Below, piece by piece: positions 4,431-39,002 of a stretch of 64,000 nucleotides of DNA. Numbering within the stretch: position 1 is the first letter of the stretch; each line of letters begins with the position of its first letter. Under the pieces are notes generated by a model that worked only from the letters and a program-made list of their open reading frames with translations, had not been told where the DNA came from and made no database searches. The stretch covers positions 8,369 to 72,368 of the forward strand of contig CALWEJ010000004.1 in the NCBI GenBank assembly GCA_944377165.1, written 5' to 3'. This stretch comes from an uncultured Clostridia bacterium (GTDB taxonomy: Bacteria > Bacillota > Clostridia > Christensenellales > UBA1242). Both the position numbers and the translations under genes were made by a program.

Positions 4431-7034
4431 ATGTTAGAATTAAAATCAATCACCAAAGCTTACAAATTAAAAGAGCAATCAGTAATGGCGCTAGACGGAA
4501 TTAGTGTTTGTTTCCGCAGGAGTGAATTCGTATCGATTTTAGGGCCTAGCGGTTGCGGTAAGACTACACTTTTAAATATAATCGGTGGATTAGATAGATA
4601 TACGGACGGAGAGCTGATTATTGACGGTGTTTCAACAAAGAAATATAAAGATAAAGATTGGGACAATTATCGAAATCATCGCGTAGGTTTTGTCTTCCAA
4701 AACTACAACCTTATTCCGCACCAAACTGTATTGGAGAATGTTGAATTAGCGCTTACATTGTCAGGCATAAAAAGAAAAGAGAGAAAGGCGCGCGCAATAG
4801 AAGTGTTGAATATGGTTGGGTTAGGGGACAAACTTCGCTCGCGTCCTAATCAACTTTCTGGCGGACAGATGCAACGTGTAGCAATAGCGCGTGCGCTTGT
4901 AAATGACCCAGAGATAATACTAGCAGATGAACCGACAGGCGCGCTTGACAGTAAAACAAGTTTGCAGATAATGGAACTATTAAAGCAGGTGAGTAAAGAC
5001 CGCTTAGTGATTATGGTCACGCATAACCCTGAACTTGCAGAAAATTATTCGACACGTATTGTGCGCTTATTAGACGGGAAGTTAATTTCAGATTCGCTAC
5101 CATATAGTGAAGAGGAATCTAAAATTGAAGTTGAAGAGCATAATAAACTTTTAGAAGAACAAAAAGCGGAAAAAGATAATTTAAAGAATAGATTTGTAAA
5201 GACGGATAAGAAAAAATCAATGTCGCCACTCACTGCGCTTTCTCTTAGCTTGAAAAATCTTTTAACTAAAAAAGGCAGAACGACAATGGTTGCCTTTGCG
5301 GGAAGTATTGGCATTATAGGAATTGCGCTTATCTTATCAGTAAGCGCAGGTATGACTAATTACATAAATAATATGCAAGGAGAATCACTCGCGAATTATC
5401 CTGTCGCAATATCTACCGTTTCGTTAGATTTGAATAGTGCTATGGACGTTATTTCATCGGCAGGCTCTGGTAGTGAAAGTACTGCAGATGATAGTATAAA
5501 TGTCAATGACGAATCTACACAACTTATGCGAATGGGTAAAATAAATTATTTAGATTCAGATTTTGTTGAATACGTATATAATTATTATGAAGACGATAAT
5601 CACTCAGACGAAATTAACGCTTATTCAATAAGCTATGCCACTAATTTAAAACTAATAAGTCGCACGGAAAATACGGACACTAATGCAACAACTTATAAGA
5701 AAATATCTAGCAATTTATCGTTAGATATAACTTCTGGAACGTATAATTCGCTTTTCTTTGAAGGACTTAATAGCAAGTTTAACGATTACGTATTGTCTAT
5801 ATACGACGTTGTAGGCGGAGAGAATGCGCATTTCCCAACAAATAAAAATGAAGTAGCATTAGTAGTCAATTCTGGCACTGCTTCAAAATCACTTTTAGAC
5901 AGTTTAGATATAGCATACGAAACAGATAATGGAACAATTAAACCTATAAAGTATTCTAATATTATTGGTAAGACTTATCGACTTCTTCTAAATGACGGAT
6001 ATTATGATGAAACTGGTAAACCGTATGCAAGTTTTAGTGGAGATTTAGAGCAAGACACATTATCTAATCTATATAATAATTCGGACTCTACTAAATATGA
6101 AGACTTAACAATAAGTTGTATTCTTATTCAAAAAGACGATTCAGTCGGAACAATATTTAGTGACGGCATAATGTACACACACGAGCTCGCAGAATTTTAT
6201 CATAACGACGCGGTTAATTCTCAAGCCGTGGCAGGAGTTAAGGCAAAGTTCCTTGACGGCGAAGGCAACTTGTCAAATGGCGGGCTAGTTAATTTTGATG
6301 AACCTTATCTACTTAGTATAAGCGAATTGTCACTATTAGAAATTGACCCTGATATGTTTATATATGAAACTCCGATAGAGATGAAAACAGTTTTATCTAG
6401 TCCTATGTTTGATTTAAATATGACGGACAGCGATTTAATTGATTTTTATCTTCAAATGTATGGAGCAAGTCACGTACCTACGGGCATTTATATATACGCA
6501 AAGGATTTTGATTCTAAAGAGAGCATTACTGAAATGCTTGATAAGTGGAATAGTGACCCTGCTAATAGGGAAATTACATATAGCGACAACAGCGAATTTA
6601 TAACGAGCATATTAGGCGATTTGGTGAATATTATTTCGTATGTGTTGATTGCATTCGCTGCAATATCATTAGTGGTTTCTAGCATTATGATAGGAATTAT
6701 AACTTATACTTCAGTTATTGAAAGGACTAAAGAGATTGGTGTATTGCGAAGTATTGGTGCATCGAAGCGCGATGTTTCACGAGTATTCAATGCAGAAACA
6801 ATCATTATTGGCTTGCTTGCAGGTGTTATAGGAATAGTTGTCTCAGGATTATTCACAATTTTAATAAGTGTTATATTAAAATCATTAACAGGTATTGCGG
6901 GGCTAGCGACTATGGAAGTTTGGTCAAGTCTGATACTGATTGTCGTAAGTGTTGTATTGACATTTGTCGCGGGGTTAATTCCAGCACGCATTGCTTCTAA
7001 AAAAGACCCTGTCACAGCGCTTAGAAGCGAGTAG
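4431..7034 (+). CDS. Fused ABC transporter ATPase plus FtsX-type permease (MacB-like)
   Basis: Walker [10 protein letters not shown], signature LSGGQMQR, Walker [13 protein letters not shown] large extracytoplasmic middle region is followed by a C-terminal FtsX motif ([17 protein letters not shown]) and TM helices. Confidence 0.88.
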
Positions 7035-32503: not shown

Positions 32504-32771
32504 ATGTTAAAATATAACATTTTTAATATAAAAAGTCTAGTTTTGTATATAAATATTGGTAATTATCTAGACTTAATAAGGGATTATTATTATCTTTACG
32601 GATAAAGTTATTTATATTACAACTATGAACAATCAATATCTTCACTAAAAAATTTATCAAATTAAGAATAAACAATTTAATGGTTAAAGGCAATTTGAAT
32701 GAAAAAATAAAAAATTTAAAAAATTTTTGCAATTTTAGTTGACTTTTTTTAGCAATCTGCATAATATATAG

Positions 32772-32798
32772 TTAGCAATCTAAATAAAAGAGTGCTAA
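32772..32798. promoter_or_regulatory. CIRCE operator (HrcA binding site)
   Basis: TTAGCAATC-N9-GAGTGCTAA lies 23 nt upstream of hrcA. An extra TTAGCAATC half-site at 32748-32756 overlaps a TTGACT -35-like box. Confidence 0.85.
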
Positions 32799-32820: not shown

Positions 32821-33864
32821 GTGAATATTGACGATAAGAATAAGCGTAAGCACGATATTCTAATAGTTGCAGTTGATGAATATATAAAGACGGCGCAACC
32901 TGTCACTAGCGGTGGACTTAACAATCATTTTAAAGAGATAAGTTCGGCGACTATACGTAATGAATTAAATGCACTAGAAAGTATGGGTTATCTTAAACAA
33001 GTCCACACATCTGGAGGTAGAGTGCCTACAGCACTAGCATATAAAGAATACGTTAACTCGCTACTAGCAGACGATAAGTTGGATTATGAGTCTATTAAAA
33101 AAGTTGTAAATTCATATGAAGATAGGTCGGTTAGTTTAATAAGTACTTTATCTGCGTTGGCTAAACGTCTTAGTAGAGTGACTAATTGTCCGACTGTGCT
33201 TGTACAACACGGACTACAAAATTTGACTATCGAGAACATTCAAATTATTCCACTTATAAACAAAGATTCATTATTGCTAGTAGAAACGAATGCAGGTATT
33301 ATTGATGACAGTATGTCACTAGACAGCAACATTGATAGGCGCGCGTGTATTGAAGCAAGCGATTATCTAACTAAACACTTCAAAGGTAAAACTATTGAAT
33401 ATATGATAGATAACATCAATGCGGTATGCTTGAAGGCGGGCGGTCAAATAATCAATTTTAAAGAATTGATTGATAGTGTGGCAGAAGCCTTAATTGAAGT
33501 AATTCAGACGCGATGCAATGTGTCTAACGAAAATCCTACTAAACTTTTACAGGGACTTGATAGGTCAGATTTAGACGATGCTAAGAACGTTTTAGAATTT
33601 CTAGAAAATTCAGATAATGTAATTGACGTTGTCACAAATGAAAGTGATAATGAACTTAATTTCACAATCGGAGAGTCTAGTGAAAACAGCAAGTTAAAAG
33701 GCGGAATGATGATGAGTGCACCTATAGTAATAAATGGTGTGCCTATCGCAAGCCTTGCACTTGTCGGACCTAAGCGAATCGATTATGCGAATGTTGCTGC
33801 TGCGCTAAAATTTATAGTCAATCAAATTGATAATCAAGAAGGAGGCGGAAGTGAAGAAAAATAA
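32821..33864 (+). CDS. hrcA: Heat-inducible transcription repressor HrcA
   Basis: N-terminal winged helix (R...IL..VV..Y....PV.S), conserved position upstream of grpE-dnaK-dnaJ, and a CIRCE site upstream. GTG start. Confidence 0.9.
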   Translation: MNIDDKNKRKHDILIVAVDEYIKTAQPVTSGGLNNHFKEISSATIRNELNALESMGYLKQVHTSGGRVPTALAYKEYVNSLLADDKLDYESIKKVVNSYEDRSVSLISTLSALAKRLSRVTNCPTVLVQHGLQNLTIENIQIIPLINKDSLLLVETNAGIIDDSMSLDSNIDRRACIEASDYLTKHFKGKTIEYMIDNINAVCLKAGGQIINFKELIDSVAEALIEVIQTRCNVSNENPTKLLQGLDRSDLDDAKNVLEFLENSDNVIDVVTNESDNELNFTIGESSENSKLKGGMMMSAPIVINGVPIASLALVGPKRIDYANVAAALKFIVNQIDNQEGGGSEEK

Positions 33865-34525
33865 AGACTGCAAAATCGATAAAGAACACGAAGAAAAATG
33901 TAATTGCAAAGACGATTGTAATTGTAATGATAATTGTAAATGCGACGAAAACGATAAATGCAATGATGATTGTGATTGCAACGATAACTGCAAATGCAAT
34001 GATGATTGCGATTGTGGTAATGATTGTGAGTGCGACAGCGAACACAAATGTGATGACAAATGCGACTGCGGTTGTAATTCGCATAAAGAGAGTAGCAACG
34101 ACAATGAATCTACAAACATTAAACACGATTATTTAAACGATTTATTGCGTTTGCAAGCCGAATTCGATAATTATAGGAAACGTATGCAGACTGCATTGTC
34201 TGACGCGAGAAAGGACGGATTTGTAGATGCTATTGAGCAATTCCTTCCAGCGCTTGATAGTTTTAAAATGGCGACCGATATGATAACGGATAAAAATACC
34301 CTAATGGGAATTAAGTTCATAGAGAAAGGCATTTTAGATACATTAAGCAAAATGGGAGTAGAACCAATCGACTGCTCGGGCAAGTTCAATCCAGAACTTC
34401 ATCAGGCGATAGATACGGACAGCACCGCGGACGTCGAGTCAGGAATGATTGTAAAAGAAGCATACAAAGGATTTACCTATAAGGACAAAGTTATTAGATA
34501 TGCGCAAGTAATTGTAAAGAAGTAG
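33827..34525 (+). CDS. grpE: Nucleotide exchange factor GrpE with unusual Cys-rich N-terminal domain
   Basis: The C-terminal 140 aa is canonical GrpE (LLRLQAEFDNYRKR, ...GFTYKDKVIRYAQVIV). The N-terminal ~75 aa contains 20 Cys in CxC repeats. A GTG at 33851 follows GGAGG and is a plausible true start. Confidence 0.88.
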   Translation: MIIKKEAEVKKNKDCKIDKEHEEKCNCKDDCNCNDNCKCDENDKCNDDCDCNDNCKCNDDCDCGNDCECDSEHKCDDKCDCGCNSHKESSNDNESTNIKHDYLNDLLRLQAEFDNYRKRMQTALSDARKDGFVDAIEQFLPALDSFKMATDMITDKNTLMGIKFIEKGILDTLSKMGVEPIDCSGKFNPELHQAIDTDSTADVESGMIVKEAYKGFTYKDKVIRYAQVIVKK

Positions 34526-34531
34526 GACACT

Positions 34532-35164
34532 ATGATAGAGAGTGTAAAGACGTTTTGGAAATCAAACGAACTAAAGCAAAACACACACGTGATAATTTGT
34601 GACAATGGCTGTATAGTGATTGACGCAGGTTGTCCGATTAGTGAGATAAAGGGTGTATGTGATAAGCCGATAAGTGCAGTATTTATCACACACGGACATT
34701 ACGACCATATTAAATATATAGAAGAATATGATAGATTAAATGTTCCGATATATGCAAATAAAAATATAGTCGATATGTTAAATTCACCTCTGCTTAATGT
34801 GAGCGCAATCTTCGGAGTACCTACAAAATATAAAATTAATAATTTATCTTTTGTAGAAGATGGCGACACAATAAGTGTGTTAGGCAAAGTCGTAAAATGC
34901 TTCTACACTCCGGGACATTCCGTTGACGGTATGTGCTATTTGTGCGACGACTGCTTATTTACAGGAGATACACTATTTTCAGTGGCAATCGGTAGAGTAG
35001 ATTTACCTAGTGCTGACGAAGGACAAATGATTGAAAGCTTACAAAAGTTAAATTCGCTTGAGTATTCTACAATGTATACTGGGCACGGGCGAACAAGTAC
35101 AAAAAAAGAGCAAAACAGCAATATATCGCATTATATTGAACTATTAAAAAACAAATCTATTTAG
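34532..35164 (+). CDS. MBL-fold metallo-hydrolase
   Basis: ITHGHYDH motif, TPGHS and GDTLF. Confidence 0.8.
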   Translation: MIESVKTFWKSNELKQNTHVIICDNGCIVIDAGCPISEIKGVCDKPISAVFITHGHYDHIKYIEEYDRLNVPIYANKNIVDMLNSPLLNVSAIFGVPTKYKINNLSFVEDGDTISVLGKVVKCFYTPGHSVDGMCYLCDDCLFTGDTLFSVAIGRVDLPSADEGQMIESLQKLNSLEYSTMYTGHGRTSTKKEQNSNISHYIELLKNKSI

Positions 35165-35172
35165 GAGCTAAA

Positions 35173-35604
35173 ATGTCAAAAATATACTACGCACCACGAC
35201 CTATAATATTAGGCACATATACTGCAAATCATAGGACTATCGGTTATATTGTAGATTTAGTAGATATCAAGTCAGAAGAAACTATGTACAATCACAATGA
35301 AAAGAAATCAACGCATTTTAATGTAAACTTTCCTTACCGACGAGATACCTATTGCACTTACACAAATTTTAAAATAAAGAAAAATGAATTATGTGATACT
35401 TTTGATAGATGTGTTAAGTTAGTAAATGAAATGAATGATGACTTATATAAAGAATTGAAAGGTAATTATCCACTTGATAAACTAAACGAATATGAAGACA
35501 CAATAAAAGAATATAAAAGTATAACAGATAAAGAGCAAACCAATGCAAAAGCCTACTGGGAGTGGGAATCAAAACACATATTAGGAGAAGATTTGCATTC
35601 ATAA
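35173..35604 (+). CDS. Hypothetical protein (143 aa)
   Basis: RBS AGGAG. No motif recognised. It lies between grpE and dnaK. Confidence 0.5.
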   Translation: MSKIYYAPRPIILGTYTANHRTIGYIVDLVDIKSEETMYNHNEKKSTHFNVNFPYRRDTYCTYTNFKIKKNELCDTFDRCVKLVNEMNDDLYKELKGNYPLDKLNEYEDTIKEYKSITDKEQTNAKAYWEWESKHILGEDLHS

Positions 35605-35713: not shown

Positions 35714-37540
35714 ATGTCAAAAATTATTGGTATTGATTTAGGTACAACTAATAGTTGTGTCGCTGTTATGGAAGGTGGTCAACCTACCGTTATCCCTAAT
35801 AGCGAAGGCGGAAGAACTACACCAAGTGTAGTAGGATTCAAAGACGGCGATCGTCTAATTGGTCAGGTAGCGAAACGTCAAGCAGTCGCTAATCCAGACA
35901 AAACAGTTATTTCAATTAAACGTGAAATGGGTACTGATTACAAGGTTAATATTGATGGTAAATCATATAGCCCAGAAGAAATCAGCGCAATGATTTTGTC
36001 AAAACTTAAACAAGACGCAGAGGCATATCTTGGTCAGCCAGTGACTCAAGCAGTTATCACTGTGCCAGCATACTTCAATGACTCTCAACGTCAAGCAACT
36101 AAGAATGCAGGTAAAATTGCAGGGCTAGAAGTTCTTCGTATAATTAATGAACCAACAGCAGCCGCACTTGCATACGGTCTTGATAAACAAGATAGAAAGA
36201 ATCAAAAAATCCTAGTTTATGATTTAGGTGGCGGTACATTCGATGTATCAATCCTTGAAATCGGTGACGGAGTGTTTGAAGTTCTATCTACTAACGGTAA
36301 TACTCGTTTAGGTGGTGACGATTTCGATAATCGTATTATGGACCTATTAATTTCAGAATTTAAGAACGAAACAGGTATTGATTTGTCTAACGATAGACTT
36401 GCTAAACAACGTTTAAAGGAAGCAAGCGAAAAGGCAAAAATCGAATTGAGCACATTATCTCAAACTACAATCAGTTTGCCATTTATTACAGCAGACGCAA
36501 CAGGACCTAAGCACTTAGAATATACATTAACTCGTGCGAAATTTGAAAATATGATAGCAGACCTTGTTGACCAGACTCTTGTTTGCACACGTAATGCATT
36601 GAAAGACGCAGGACTTAGCAAAAATGATATTGCAAACGTAGTTTTAGTCGGTGGTTCTACTCGTGTACCTTGCGTAGTTGAAGCGCTTTCAAAAGAAATC
36701 CCTGTGACTCCATTTAAGGGTATTAACCCAGATGAATGTGTCGCTATCGGTGCAGCTATTCAAGCAGGTGTATTGGGTGGAGAAGTTAAGGACGTTTTAC
36801 TTCTTGATGTCACTCCATTGTCATTAGGTATTGAAACATTAGGTGGAGTATGCACTAAACTTATTCCAAGAAATACAACTATCCCTACTAAGAAATCTCA
36901 AATATTCAGTACCGCACAAGATAATCAACCAGGAGTTGAAATTAACGTATTGCAAGGTGAACGTGAATTTGCCGCTCAGAACAAATCACTTGGTAGATTC
37001 CAACTTACAGGTATTCCACCAGCTCCACGCGGTGTTCCTCAAATTGAAGTCACTTTCGATATCGATGCAAATGGTATTGTAAATGTTAGCGCTAAAGATT
37101 TAGGCACTAATAAAGAGCAAAAGATAACTATTACAGCTAGCACAAATCTTAGCGAAGACGAAATCAATAAGGCCGTTAAAGAAGCTGAACAATTCGCAGA
37201 AGAAGATAAGAAGAAACGTGAAGTAATTGATGCTAGAAATAACCTTGACGGTATGACTATGAATATCGGAAAAGTTATGAAAGAAAACGGCGACAAGTTA
37301 AGCGAAGAAGATAAAAAGGCGCTTACTGATGCGGTTGAAGAAGCTAAGAAGCATATTGCTAGCGATAATATGGACGAGATTAAGAAAGCAACTGAGGACT
37401 TAACTAAAGTTTCTAACGAAGTTTTCACTAAGATGTATCAAAATATGGCTAGTCAAAATCAAGCACAACCTAATGGTCAATCAAGTTCAAACGGCAATAA
37501 ACCTAAAGACGACGGCGACCCTGAAGTTGTAGTTGAATAA
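35714..37540 (+). CDS. dnaK: Molecular chaperone DnaK (Hsp70)
   Basis: [25 protein letters not shown] and VLVGGSTR motifs across a full-length 608 aa. Confidence 0.97.
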
Positions 37541-37548
37541 AGGAAGTT

Positions 37549-38673
37549 ATGGCAAATAATGATTATTATGCAACCTTAGGGGTGAGTAAGTCAGCGAGCG
37601 AAGATGAAATCAAGTCGGCATATCGTGCGCTTGCAAAAAAATATCACCCTGACCTAAATAAAACCCCTGAGGCGGCAGAAAAATTTAAAGAGATAAACGA
37701 GGCATATTCTGTTTTAGGAGATAAGCAGAAACGCGCTAACTATGACCAATATGGCAGTGCTGACGGACCGCAAGGCTTTGGCGGTGGTGGTCAAGGTTTT
37801 TCAGGCGGATTTTCTAGCGGTGATTTTGGCGGATTTGAAGATATATTCAATATTTTCTCTAATTTTGGTTCACGAGGCAATGCACGTGTAAGGGAAGAAG
37901 GCGACGATGTCAATATAAATCTAGTCATTTCGTTTACTGAAGCAGCTTTCGGTTGCGAAAAAGAAGTGACAGTGACAAGGAAAGAACGTTGTTCAGATTG
38001 CAACGGCACGGGCGCAAAATCTAGTAGCGATTACGTGACTTGTAGCGAGTGTAATGGTACGGGTAGAATGACCTATACTCAACAAACCTTGTTCGGTATG
38101 ACGCGAACGGTTGGAACTTGTAGAACTTGTGGTGGAAAGGGTAAAATCATTAAAAATAAATGCCCTAGTTGTCACGGAACAGGGCTAAAGACTACTACAA
38201 GCAAAATTAAAGTGAAAATCCCTGCAGGTATTGATAACGAACAAGTCATTCGCTTGAATGGTGAAGGTGACCAAACCGCATCTGCGGACGGAGTTGCTGG
38301 CGACCTTAGAATTGCTATAACCGTTCAACCTCATTCACTTTTGGTTAGGAAAGGTTTTGATTTGTATGTAGATGTTTATGTCCCTATCACTACTTTAATG
38401 TTGGGTGGCAAAGTCAAAGTTCCTACACTTAAAGGAACTACAACTATCGACGTTGCTCCACTTACACAATCTAACACAAAATATACATTGAAGGGAAAGG
38501 GTGTTAAATATCTAAAATCTATAGGAAGTGGTAATTTGATTGTCACTCTGAAAGGTGAAATGCCTAAAGATATAGATAAAAACACAATTAAACTAATTAA
38601 AGAGTTAGAAAGTTCTATTAGCGATAAATCTTATCCAAAGACAAATAATTATAATAAAAAATTAGATGACTAA
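37549..38673 (+). CDS. dnaJ: Molecular chaperone DnaJ
   Basis: J domain with HPD (KKYHPDLN), a G/F region and four CxxCxGxG zinc-finger repeats. Confidence 0.96.
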
Positions 38674-38698: not shown

Positions 38699-39002
38699 CC
38701 ATTTAAATACATTTGTTATTTAGATTTGTTTAGATAAAAATCTACTTAAATAAACAAAAAATCATAAAGATATTTTATAATCATATACTTTATCTTATCT
38801 TTTTAATTGAGAAATTGATAGACTAAAAATTTTATTTACCTATATAATAAACATTTTTCTTAAAAATGAGTTTAATTATAGGACTTAAGAATTTAGGCAT
38901 TTTAAAACAATATATTTTCATACTATATATTATATTATTATTTGATATAAATTGCTATTCTTATTTAAAACAAGTTAGTAAATAAAGGTATAAAAAAAGA
39001 GA

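Follow-up and report, generated by a model that had tools for sequence, protein, structure and literature searches.

GrpE of "Candidatus Onthoplasma" and of relatives in the family UBA1242 carries a cysteine-rich, metallothionein-like N-terminal tail

The heat-shock co-chaperone HspA of Helicobacter pylori, a GroES protein, carries an extension of about 27 amino acids. HspA has been described as a nickel-binding or nickel-scavenging protein (PMC5116745, PMC4671568, PMC7585873). The tails of GrpE are under active study as direct modulators of substrate release by DnaK (JBC 2026, PMC12915176). In E. coli, the disordered GrpE tails bind transiently in the substrate groove of DnaK through the residues 17-IIM-19, and acidic tails with two to three hydrophobic residues are a general feature of bacterial GrpE (Maqtedar et al., JBC 2026, PMC12915176). 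Our literature searches retrieved no description of a cysteine-rich GrpE, and databases label such proteins simply as "nucleotide exchange factor GrpE".

"Candidatus Onthoplasma" is a member of the GTDB family UBA1242 (Christensenellales), a family with reduced genomes (PMC12306168, Table 1). Its relatives are represented by metagenome-assembled genomes (MAGs) from the gut of chicken, rabbit, ruminant and human. UBA1242 genomes comprise about 1 Mb, and the source genome of the present locus, from chicken gut, has a size of 1.02 Mb and is 96% complete. The window, i.e. the whole stretch of 64,000 nucleotides that was analysed, contains the following elements, the order of which is that of a classical Gram-positive heat-shock operon:

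32739..32767, + strand: sigma-70-like promoter match (TTGACT-17-TAATAT), a match to the consensus only, directly upstream of CIRCE
32772..32798, + strand: CIRCE operator (TTAGCAATC-N9-GAGTGCTAA), the HrcA binding site of the heat-shock operon, with 1 mismatch to the consensus (chance expectation 0.01 matches)
32821..33864, + strand: hrcA, heat-inducible repressor (PF01628 at 9.5e-31; PF03444), its 3' end overlapping the grpE start by 14 nt
33841..33845, + strand: Shine-Dalgarno sequence GGAGG, read from the sequence, 5 nt before the GTG of grpE
33851..34525, + strand: grpE, 224 aa plus stop, GTG start (open reading frame, Pfam and homologues)
34115..34522, + strand: canonical GrpE core with the stalk helix from about residue 94, the helical bundle and the beta domain (Pfam, structure alignments, AlphaFold2)
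34532..35164, + strand: hydrolase of the metallo-beta-lactamase (MBL) fold, between grpE and dnaK (Pfam)
35173..35604, + strand: 143-aa ORF without family match in the Pfam scan, also between grpE and dnaK
35714..37540, + strand: dnaK
37549..38673, + strand: dnaJ, type I, with four CxxCxGxG zinc-finger motifs

By its position in hrcA-grpE-dnaK-dnaJ under CIRCE control the gene belongs to the grpE family, and this synteny is kept in 47 related loci. The MBL-fold insert was found in only eight Onthoplasma loci, all of which have Cys-rich GrpE tails, and is absent from other relatives. Being restricted to one Onthoplasma sub-lineage, it was rejected as an explanation of the tail.

Residues 89 to 224 of the encoded protein match PF01025 (profile positions 25-165) with 118.3 bits at a cut-off of 25.8, and residues ~94-97 to 224 align with the solved GrpE proteins 4ANI, 3A6M, 1DKG and 8GB3 (phmmer). 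For this core AlphaFold2, run with an alignment of 26 sequences, predicted the helix-bundle-beta architecture. The predicted helix begins at residue 94, the counterpart of which in the alignment with E. coli GrpE is residue 60, and the stalk thus appears to be about 20 residues shorter than in 1DKG; an equally short stalk is shared by the plain-tail relatives. The gene presumably encodes a functional GrpE nucleotide exchange factor, and this predicted exchange activity is part of the explanation which we regard as the best for the locus.

The region in front of the core comprises the following features:

33869..34075, + strand: Cys array with 20 Cys (C7 to C75), nine CxC units, Asp/Asn/Lys spacers and no aromatic residue
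33899..34008, + strand: tandem-repeat core of the tail, 18-nt period, 6.1 copies (Tandem Repeats Finder)
after 33910..33911, + strand: strain polymorphism, an in-frame 18-nt insertion GAAGATTGCAAATGTAGC encoding EDCKCS and thereby one extra CxC unit, found in two chicken-gut DNA runs of other studies and in an RNA run
33805-34119 (- strand), 33818-34126 (- strand) and 33927-34136 (+ strand): three spurious ORFs caused by the repeat composition, with low-complexity translations, inside the conserved coding frame

The first-pass annotation had described a metallothionein-like N-terminal extension with 20 Cys on a genuine GrpE, and the 20 cysteines are indeed encoded in frame with the PF01025 core. 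The interval 33866-34090 translates to DCKIDKEHEEKCNCKDDCNCNDNCKCDENDKCNDDCDCNDNCKCNDDCDCGNDCECDSEHKCDDKCDCGCNSHKE, in frame with the 224-aa grpE ORF; the Cys-rich string reported earlier is present, but had been given with a shift of one residue. The nine CxC units are in line with the "eight or more" counted before, and the three overlapping ORFs regarded as spurious are all present and of low complexity. The duplication of about 36 nt, which had been given as one sequence present twice, is real but imperfect: Tandem Repeats Finder detected a second repeat with a 36-nt period and 2.5 copies at 33919-34008 that matches to 81%, KCNDDCDCNDNC being followed by KCNDDCDCGNDC.

The cysteines begin at the positions 7, 17, 19, 23, 25, 29, 31, 37, 41 and 43, corresponding to a CxC-x3 spacing, and the tail includes peptides such as DDCNCNDNCK and CNDDCDCNDNCK. 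Shuffling the same 80 tail residues 2000 times resulted in a mean of 4.7 and a maximum of 10 CxC units, compared with the nine observed. Cysteine accounts for 26% of the residues 1-78 (20 Cys), the first aromatic residue is Y94, and residues 1-92 have the composition D20 C20 N15 K14 E8 S5 H4 with a pI of 4.4. Mammalian metallothionein also has 20 Cys. According to a six-frame scan the tail is the densest Cys stretch of the 1.02-Mb genome (13 Cys in 40 aa), the next recognisable proteins being ferredoxin-like with 8 Cys in 40 aa. Outside the window, the + strand of contig C5 (about nt 4850-5100) contains an 85-aa ORF, in which the Cys/Gly-rich sequences GNDCGCGNDFGCNGDC and CNCGCKVDPC flank a hydrophobic stretch, and which may encode a small membrane protein.

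Translation of grpE is predicted to start at GTG 33851, with GGAGG 5 nt upstream. The next in-frame ATG or GTG corresponds to M112 inside the conserved FDNYRKRM core, and the sole other downstream candidates are TTG codons within the conserved stalk helix. Since no usable start is located between tail and core, a functional GrpE must include the tail. An M-K-K start is conserved among orthologues, and the reading frame and the cysteines are conserved in hundreds of them. As far as sequence evidence goes, the tail is translated as part of GrpE and is not bypassed by a downstream start.

Nor does the tail represent an assembly artefact, as it was found in independent chicken-gut assemblies of three studies, one run being sequence-identical, and in one metatranscriptome. 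One of the insertion-carrying DNA runs also shows point differences, with every Cys kept, and protein P0001 matches the EDCKCS insertion variant. That the tail is transcribed as part of the operon hrcA-grpE-dnaK-dnaJ, which is under CIRCE/HrcA control, is shown by a 1083-nt metatranscriptome contig extending from the 3' half of hrcA through the Cys tail into the grpE core. The depth of the RNA run was patchy and amounted to 6-19 over hrcA to dnaJ, to ~0-2.5 in the 5 kb upstream and to zero in the spacer 3' of dnaJ, and this contrast between the operon and its flanks fits RNA rather than contaminating DNA. The spacer itself (38700-39000) is very AT-rich (GC 0.15-0.20). A second RNA run (X25) yielded fragments only.

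A homologue search returned 794 proteins, and most of the best 120 of these have a tail of variable length with 8-28 Cys and a core that is 60-90% identical. For the distribution within the family, GrpE was taken from 161 UBA1242 genomes of 57 genera, and tails with at least 6 Cys were regarded as Cys-rich. A Cys-rich (or Cys/His-rich) tail is encoded in 85 of the 161 genomes and in at least one species of 34 of the 57 genera; the tail is therefore not the single oddity it had first been taken for. All outgroups sampled (other Christensenellales families, other Clostridia, Bacillaceae and Acidobacteriota) have 0-2 Cys, which agrees with the earlier statement that ordinary GrpE tails contain no Cys clusters. 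The survey of orthologues which the first-pass annotation had suggested detected both the extension and a variation of the repeat number, between strains as well as between species.

The Cys number of the Cys-rich tails ranges from 6 to 45, their length varies, and many relatives mix Cys and His (11 Cys with 22 His, 13 with 15, 9 with 12). Some genera of the family have extreme tails: in L255 (G548), L182 (G442) and L272 (G477) we observed a tail of ~267 aa with 45 Cys, one of 198 aa with 28 Cys and a 30-aa Cys unit that is duplicated exactly within a tail, and open frames extend to 400-600 aa.

Approximately half of UBA1242, including close Onthoplasma species, has plain acidic tails, and the viability of these relatives indicates that the Cys tail is dispensable. 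The Cys-rich state is clustered in the GrpE-core tree, requiring 24 changes compared with 48 for shuffled labels. At least eight changes of the tail state are forced by well-supported branches, which implies repeated losses or gains of the Cys-rich tail. A core motif of 21 aa, CxCG[DES]xCxC-x4-5-[KRH]C-x3-CxC, was detected in 19 of the 73 distinct Cys-rich tails, originating from four genera, and in none of the shuffles, which argues for common descent of the tails and not for compositional convergence alone. Within UBA1242, with its reduced genomes, the Cys tail is of ancient origin and has been retained patchily. Several Onthoplasma MAGs from rabbit gut (L011, L029, L031, L033, L034, L016, L028) have acidic GrpE tails with a conserved E-E-P-I-P-P-P-E-E motif; these are free of Cys except for L016 and L028, which add a few Cys to the motif and therefore look like intermediates.

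The selection acting on the tail was assessed by comparing codons in 10 independent (disjoint) pairs of related species. The Cys codons showed 41 synonymous (TGT<->TGC) and 9 non-synonymous changes, whereas the other tail codons showed 84 synonymous and 142 non-synonymous changes (odds ratio 0.13, p = 1e-8), a result that was unchanged under flat alignment scoring. The cysteines of the tail are strongly conserved by purifying selection, in contrast to the freely evolving spacers and repeat number.

The tail probably binds metal ions. The reading that we consider the best, with modest confidence, is that this stress-induced co-chaperone has an integral buffer or sensor of the metal-thiolate type (Zn/Cu). 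In place of the usual disordered acidic N-tail, the protein has a CxC-xxx repeat array about 70 residues long (20 Cys, pI ~4.4). The reduced thiolates of this array, joined by His in many relatives, would fold round soft metals, namely Zn(II), Cu(I) and perhaps Cd or Ni, and form clusters of the metallothionein type. Histidine is the other common protein ligand for these metals. Each GrpE dimer would carry two such metal-buffering modules at the tip of the stalk, and the most likely function of the tail would be to buffer thiophilic metals in the cytosol or to serve as a sink for them. A secondary reading is that the metal or redox state modulates the action of the tail on the substrate-binding domain of DnaK.

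This interpretation is derived from the metallothionein-like composition and CxC spacing, the supplementation by His, the predicted disorder, the lack of metal genes and the association with HMA genes. AlphaFold2 gave a pLDDT <50 across the Cys tail and left residues 1-89 without predicted structure, as expected of an apo-metallothionein, yet this outcome is not diagnostic. The 96%-complete genome was found to lack HMA domains, and with them any protein of the CopZ, CopA or ZntA type, as well as CDF transporters and regulators of the Fur family, for which a single weak match fell inside hrcA; both P-type ATPases are P2-type. Each of HMA, CDF and Fur is present in all or almost all of the 14 control genomes. 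Since GrpE is abundant and stress-induced and the genome lacks an HMA/P1B-ATPase, a CDF exporter and Fur/Zur, the tail appears most likely to be a sink for thiophilic metals, although the missing genes could reflect mere general genome reduction.

Among the 161 UBA1242 genomes, HMA genes are present in 33% of the Cys-tail and in 57% of the plain-tail genomes (Fisher p = 0.004). Within the genus Onthoplasma the proportions are 3 of 15 and 6 of 7, respectively (p = 0.007), the association being weak outside the genus. In the 11 well-supported phylogenetically independent contrasts the inverse association was not significant, HMA differing in about three of them (2.6 opposite vs 0.5 same), and for this reason it is regarded as a lead only and not as evidence.

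The Pfam scan of the isolated tail assigned it to no metallothionein family (PF00131, PF01439, PF02069 and others), with no match at E <= 10. The tails of two relatives gave no family either, one of them matching only Metallothio_5 at E = 6.3. A word-seeded search with the tail alone for free-standing relatives resulted in 12 candidates, none of them significant.

Alternatively, the tail could function as a thiol redox switch or sacrificial antioxidant, in that the 20 thiols (with or without Zn) of a strict anaerobe are oxidised by oxygen or electrophiles and the tail either scavenges the oxidant or alters GrpE such that DnaK holds its clients longer. Such a function would resemble that of the Zn-Cys switches in Hsp33 or in Ruc of M. 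tuberculosis. The cysteines are conserved according to the codon evidence given above, the gene belongs to a stress operon, and redox-regulated Zn-Cys chaperones are known (PMC7448276, PMC11664415). However, in many relatives His partly replaces Cys or is added to it, which is easier to reconcile with metal ligation than with disulfide chemistry, and the known switches consist of one four-Cys centre and not of arrays of 10-35 Cys. We therefore regard a redox function as unlikely, even though it is compatible with metal binding.

It is also conceivable that the tail takes an active part in the chaperone cycle and is more than a passive metal sink. Depending on bound metal or on the oxidation of its thiols, each tail of the dimer might switch between a disordered polyanion and compact thiolate clusters and thereby gate the action of GrpE on the DnaK substrate-binding domain, or the tails might remove adventitious Cu(I), Zn or Cd from clients misfolded by metal as these are released. 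If this held true, the Hsp70 system would double as a sensor of metal or redox stress in 1-Mb genomes without metal exporters or Fur-type sensors, but we consider such a role distinctly unlikely. The adjacent hydrophobic residues by which canonical GrpE N-tails bind to the DnaK groove are not found in the Onthoplasma tail: the only hydrophobic residues in the segment 1-92 are M1, I9 and I90. Two adjacent hydrophobic residues occur in 19 of 73 Cys-rich tails, in comparison to 41 of 68 plain tails. On these grounds, GrpE proteins with Cys tails probably do not use the hydrophobic pseudo-substrate mechanism.

A neutral low-complexity expansion would imply slippage of the 18-nt repeat in a dispensable disordered tail in which CxC is merely tolerated. 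The region is built of tandem repeats, their number differs between strains, and the tail was lost repeatedly within a family whose plain-tail species are viable. On the other hand, the Cys codons are about eightfold less prone to non-synonymous change than the remaining codons of the tail, the Cys-rich state is retained in genera whose GrpE cores are only 35-45% identical, and the specific 21-aa motif is common to genera. The conservation of Cys amid drifting spacers and repeats rules out neutral expansion as the main explanation, and overall it seems highly unlikely.

Scarcely probable is, furthermore, an iron-sulfur or other cofactor site or a metal-bridged dimer clamp, by which the two tails would share a cluster that stabilises the short stalk and replaces the thermosensor helix pair. 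The stalk being about 20 residues shorter than in 1DKG (helix from residue 94) would be in accordance with a clamp, but the plain-tail relatives have the same short stalk, the CxC-xxx spacing is not a known Fe-S motif, and tail length and Cys number (6 to 45) vary in a way that a defined cofactor site would not. Finally, the possibility that the tail is not part of the protein, owing to a downstream start or an artefact of assembly, is essentially refuted by the start-codon survey (Shine-Dalgarno sequence at the upstream GTG, conserved M-K-K, no ATG/GTG before M112 in the core), by the independent assemblies and RNA, and by the conservation of frame and Cys among orthologues.

Cys-rich tails are also present on other proteins of the order. 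A scan of 401 Christensenellales genomes for the DNA pattern CxCx3CxCx3CxC was too noisy, as reversed-pattern controls scored similarly, and served only to draw attention to proteins, DUF1292 among them, that have Cys/Asp tails. Such CxC tails, rich in Cys and Asp and in some cases His, were observed in other families of the order at the C-terminus of DUF1292 (PF06949) proteins (L126, L130, L131), and similar C-terminal tails on a conserved ~230-aa protein without family (L133-L135), a small membrane protein (L132) and another unannotated protein (L128). Their occurrence on several unrelated proteins suggests that ligand-rich tails are a recurrent device in Christensenellales.

A family of gut bacteria in which a Cys array under purifying selection has taken the place of the GrpE tail provides a natural experiment on how Hsp70 cycling may be connected with metal or redox chemistry. 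More broadly, the tails suggest that uncultured anaerobes with reduced genomes, which lack the textbook genes of metal homeostasis, possess a class of metal-ligand tails that has so far escaped annotation. If a role in metal handling held true, GrpE would be a second co-chaperone, after H. pylori HspA, to double as a metal-handling protein.

Compared with the canonical bacterial GrpE of E. coli (1DKG), Geobacillus kaustophilus (4ANI), Thermus thermophilus (3A6M) and M. tuberculosis (8GB3), the Onthoplasma protein is alike in its core, its operon with CIRCE and its predicted architecture. The tail, in contrast, is a 20-Cys CxC array, whereas the canonical tail is Glu-rich and disordered and contains a hydrophobic DnaK-binding motif of two to three residues (PMC12915176), and the stalk helix appears to be shorter than that of E. 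coli GrpE by the ~20 residues mentioned.

Hsp33, Ruc of M. tuberculosis (PMC7448276) and the zinc finger of DnaJ likewise represent Cys-based metal centres tied to the DnaK network, that of the GrpE tail being putative. Theirs are single four-Cys centres of fixed spacing, whereas the GrpE tails are variable, with 6-45 Cys in CxC. A zinc centre of the Hsp33 or DnaJ type (CxCx27-32CxxC or CxxCxGxG repeats) was not found in the Onthoplasma tail, which contains no CxxC.

With 26% Cys and nine CxC, the tail agrees in composition with the operational definition of metallothioneins, i.e. a Cys content of 15-30% in CxC/CxxC/CC and few or no aromatic residues. It resembles metallothioneins (fungal Cu-metallothioneins, plant metallothioneins with CxC, bacterial SmtA/BmtA of PF02069) in its Cys content, its CxC and CxCxxxCxC, its lack of aromatic residues and the predicted disorder without metal. 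In contrast to these small free-standing proteins it is fused to GrpE as the N-terminal part of a 224-aa protein, the spacers between its cysteines are strongly acidic (Asp/Asn/Glu), and it stands outside the curated families.

The tails of the DUF1292 type share chemistry and spacing with the GrpE tail, e.g. ECGCGCGCGDECDCDDECDCDDECDCGC at the C-terminus of PF06949 proteins. They are, however, C-terminal and located on unrelated carriers in other families, and the likeness is chemical and not an established homology.

By analogy, the nearest functional precedent is H. pylori HspA with its His/Cys-rich nickel-binding extension. HspA is a GroES and not a GrpE, and its extension, which is short and located at the C-terminus, contains mainly His instead of Cys and is restricted to Helicobacter. 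Nevertheless, both proteins are heat-shock co-chaperones with a lineage-specific, low-complexity and ligand-rich appendage, which in HspA acts in metal homeostasis and in the GrpE of Onthoplasma putatively does so.
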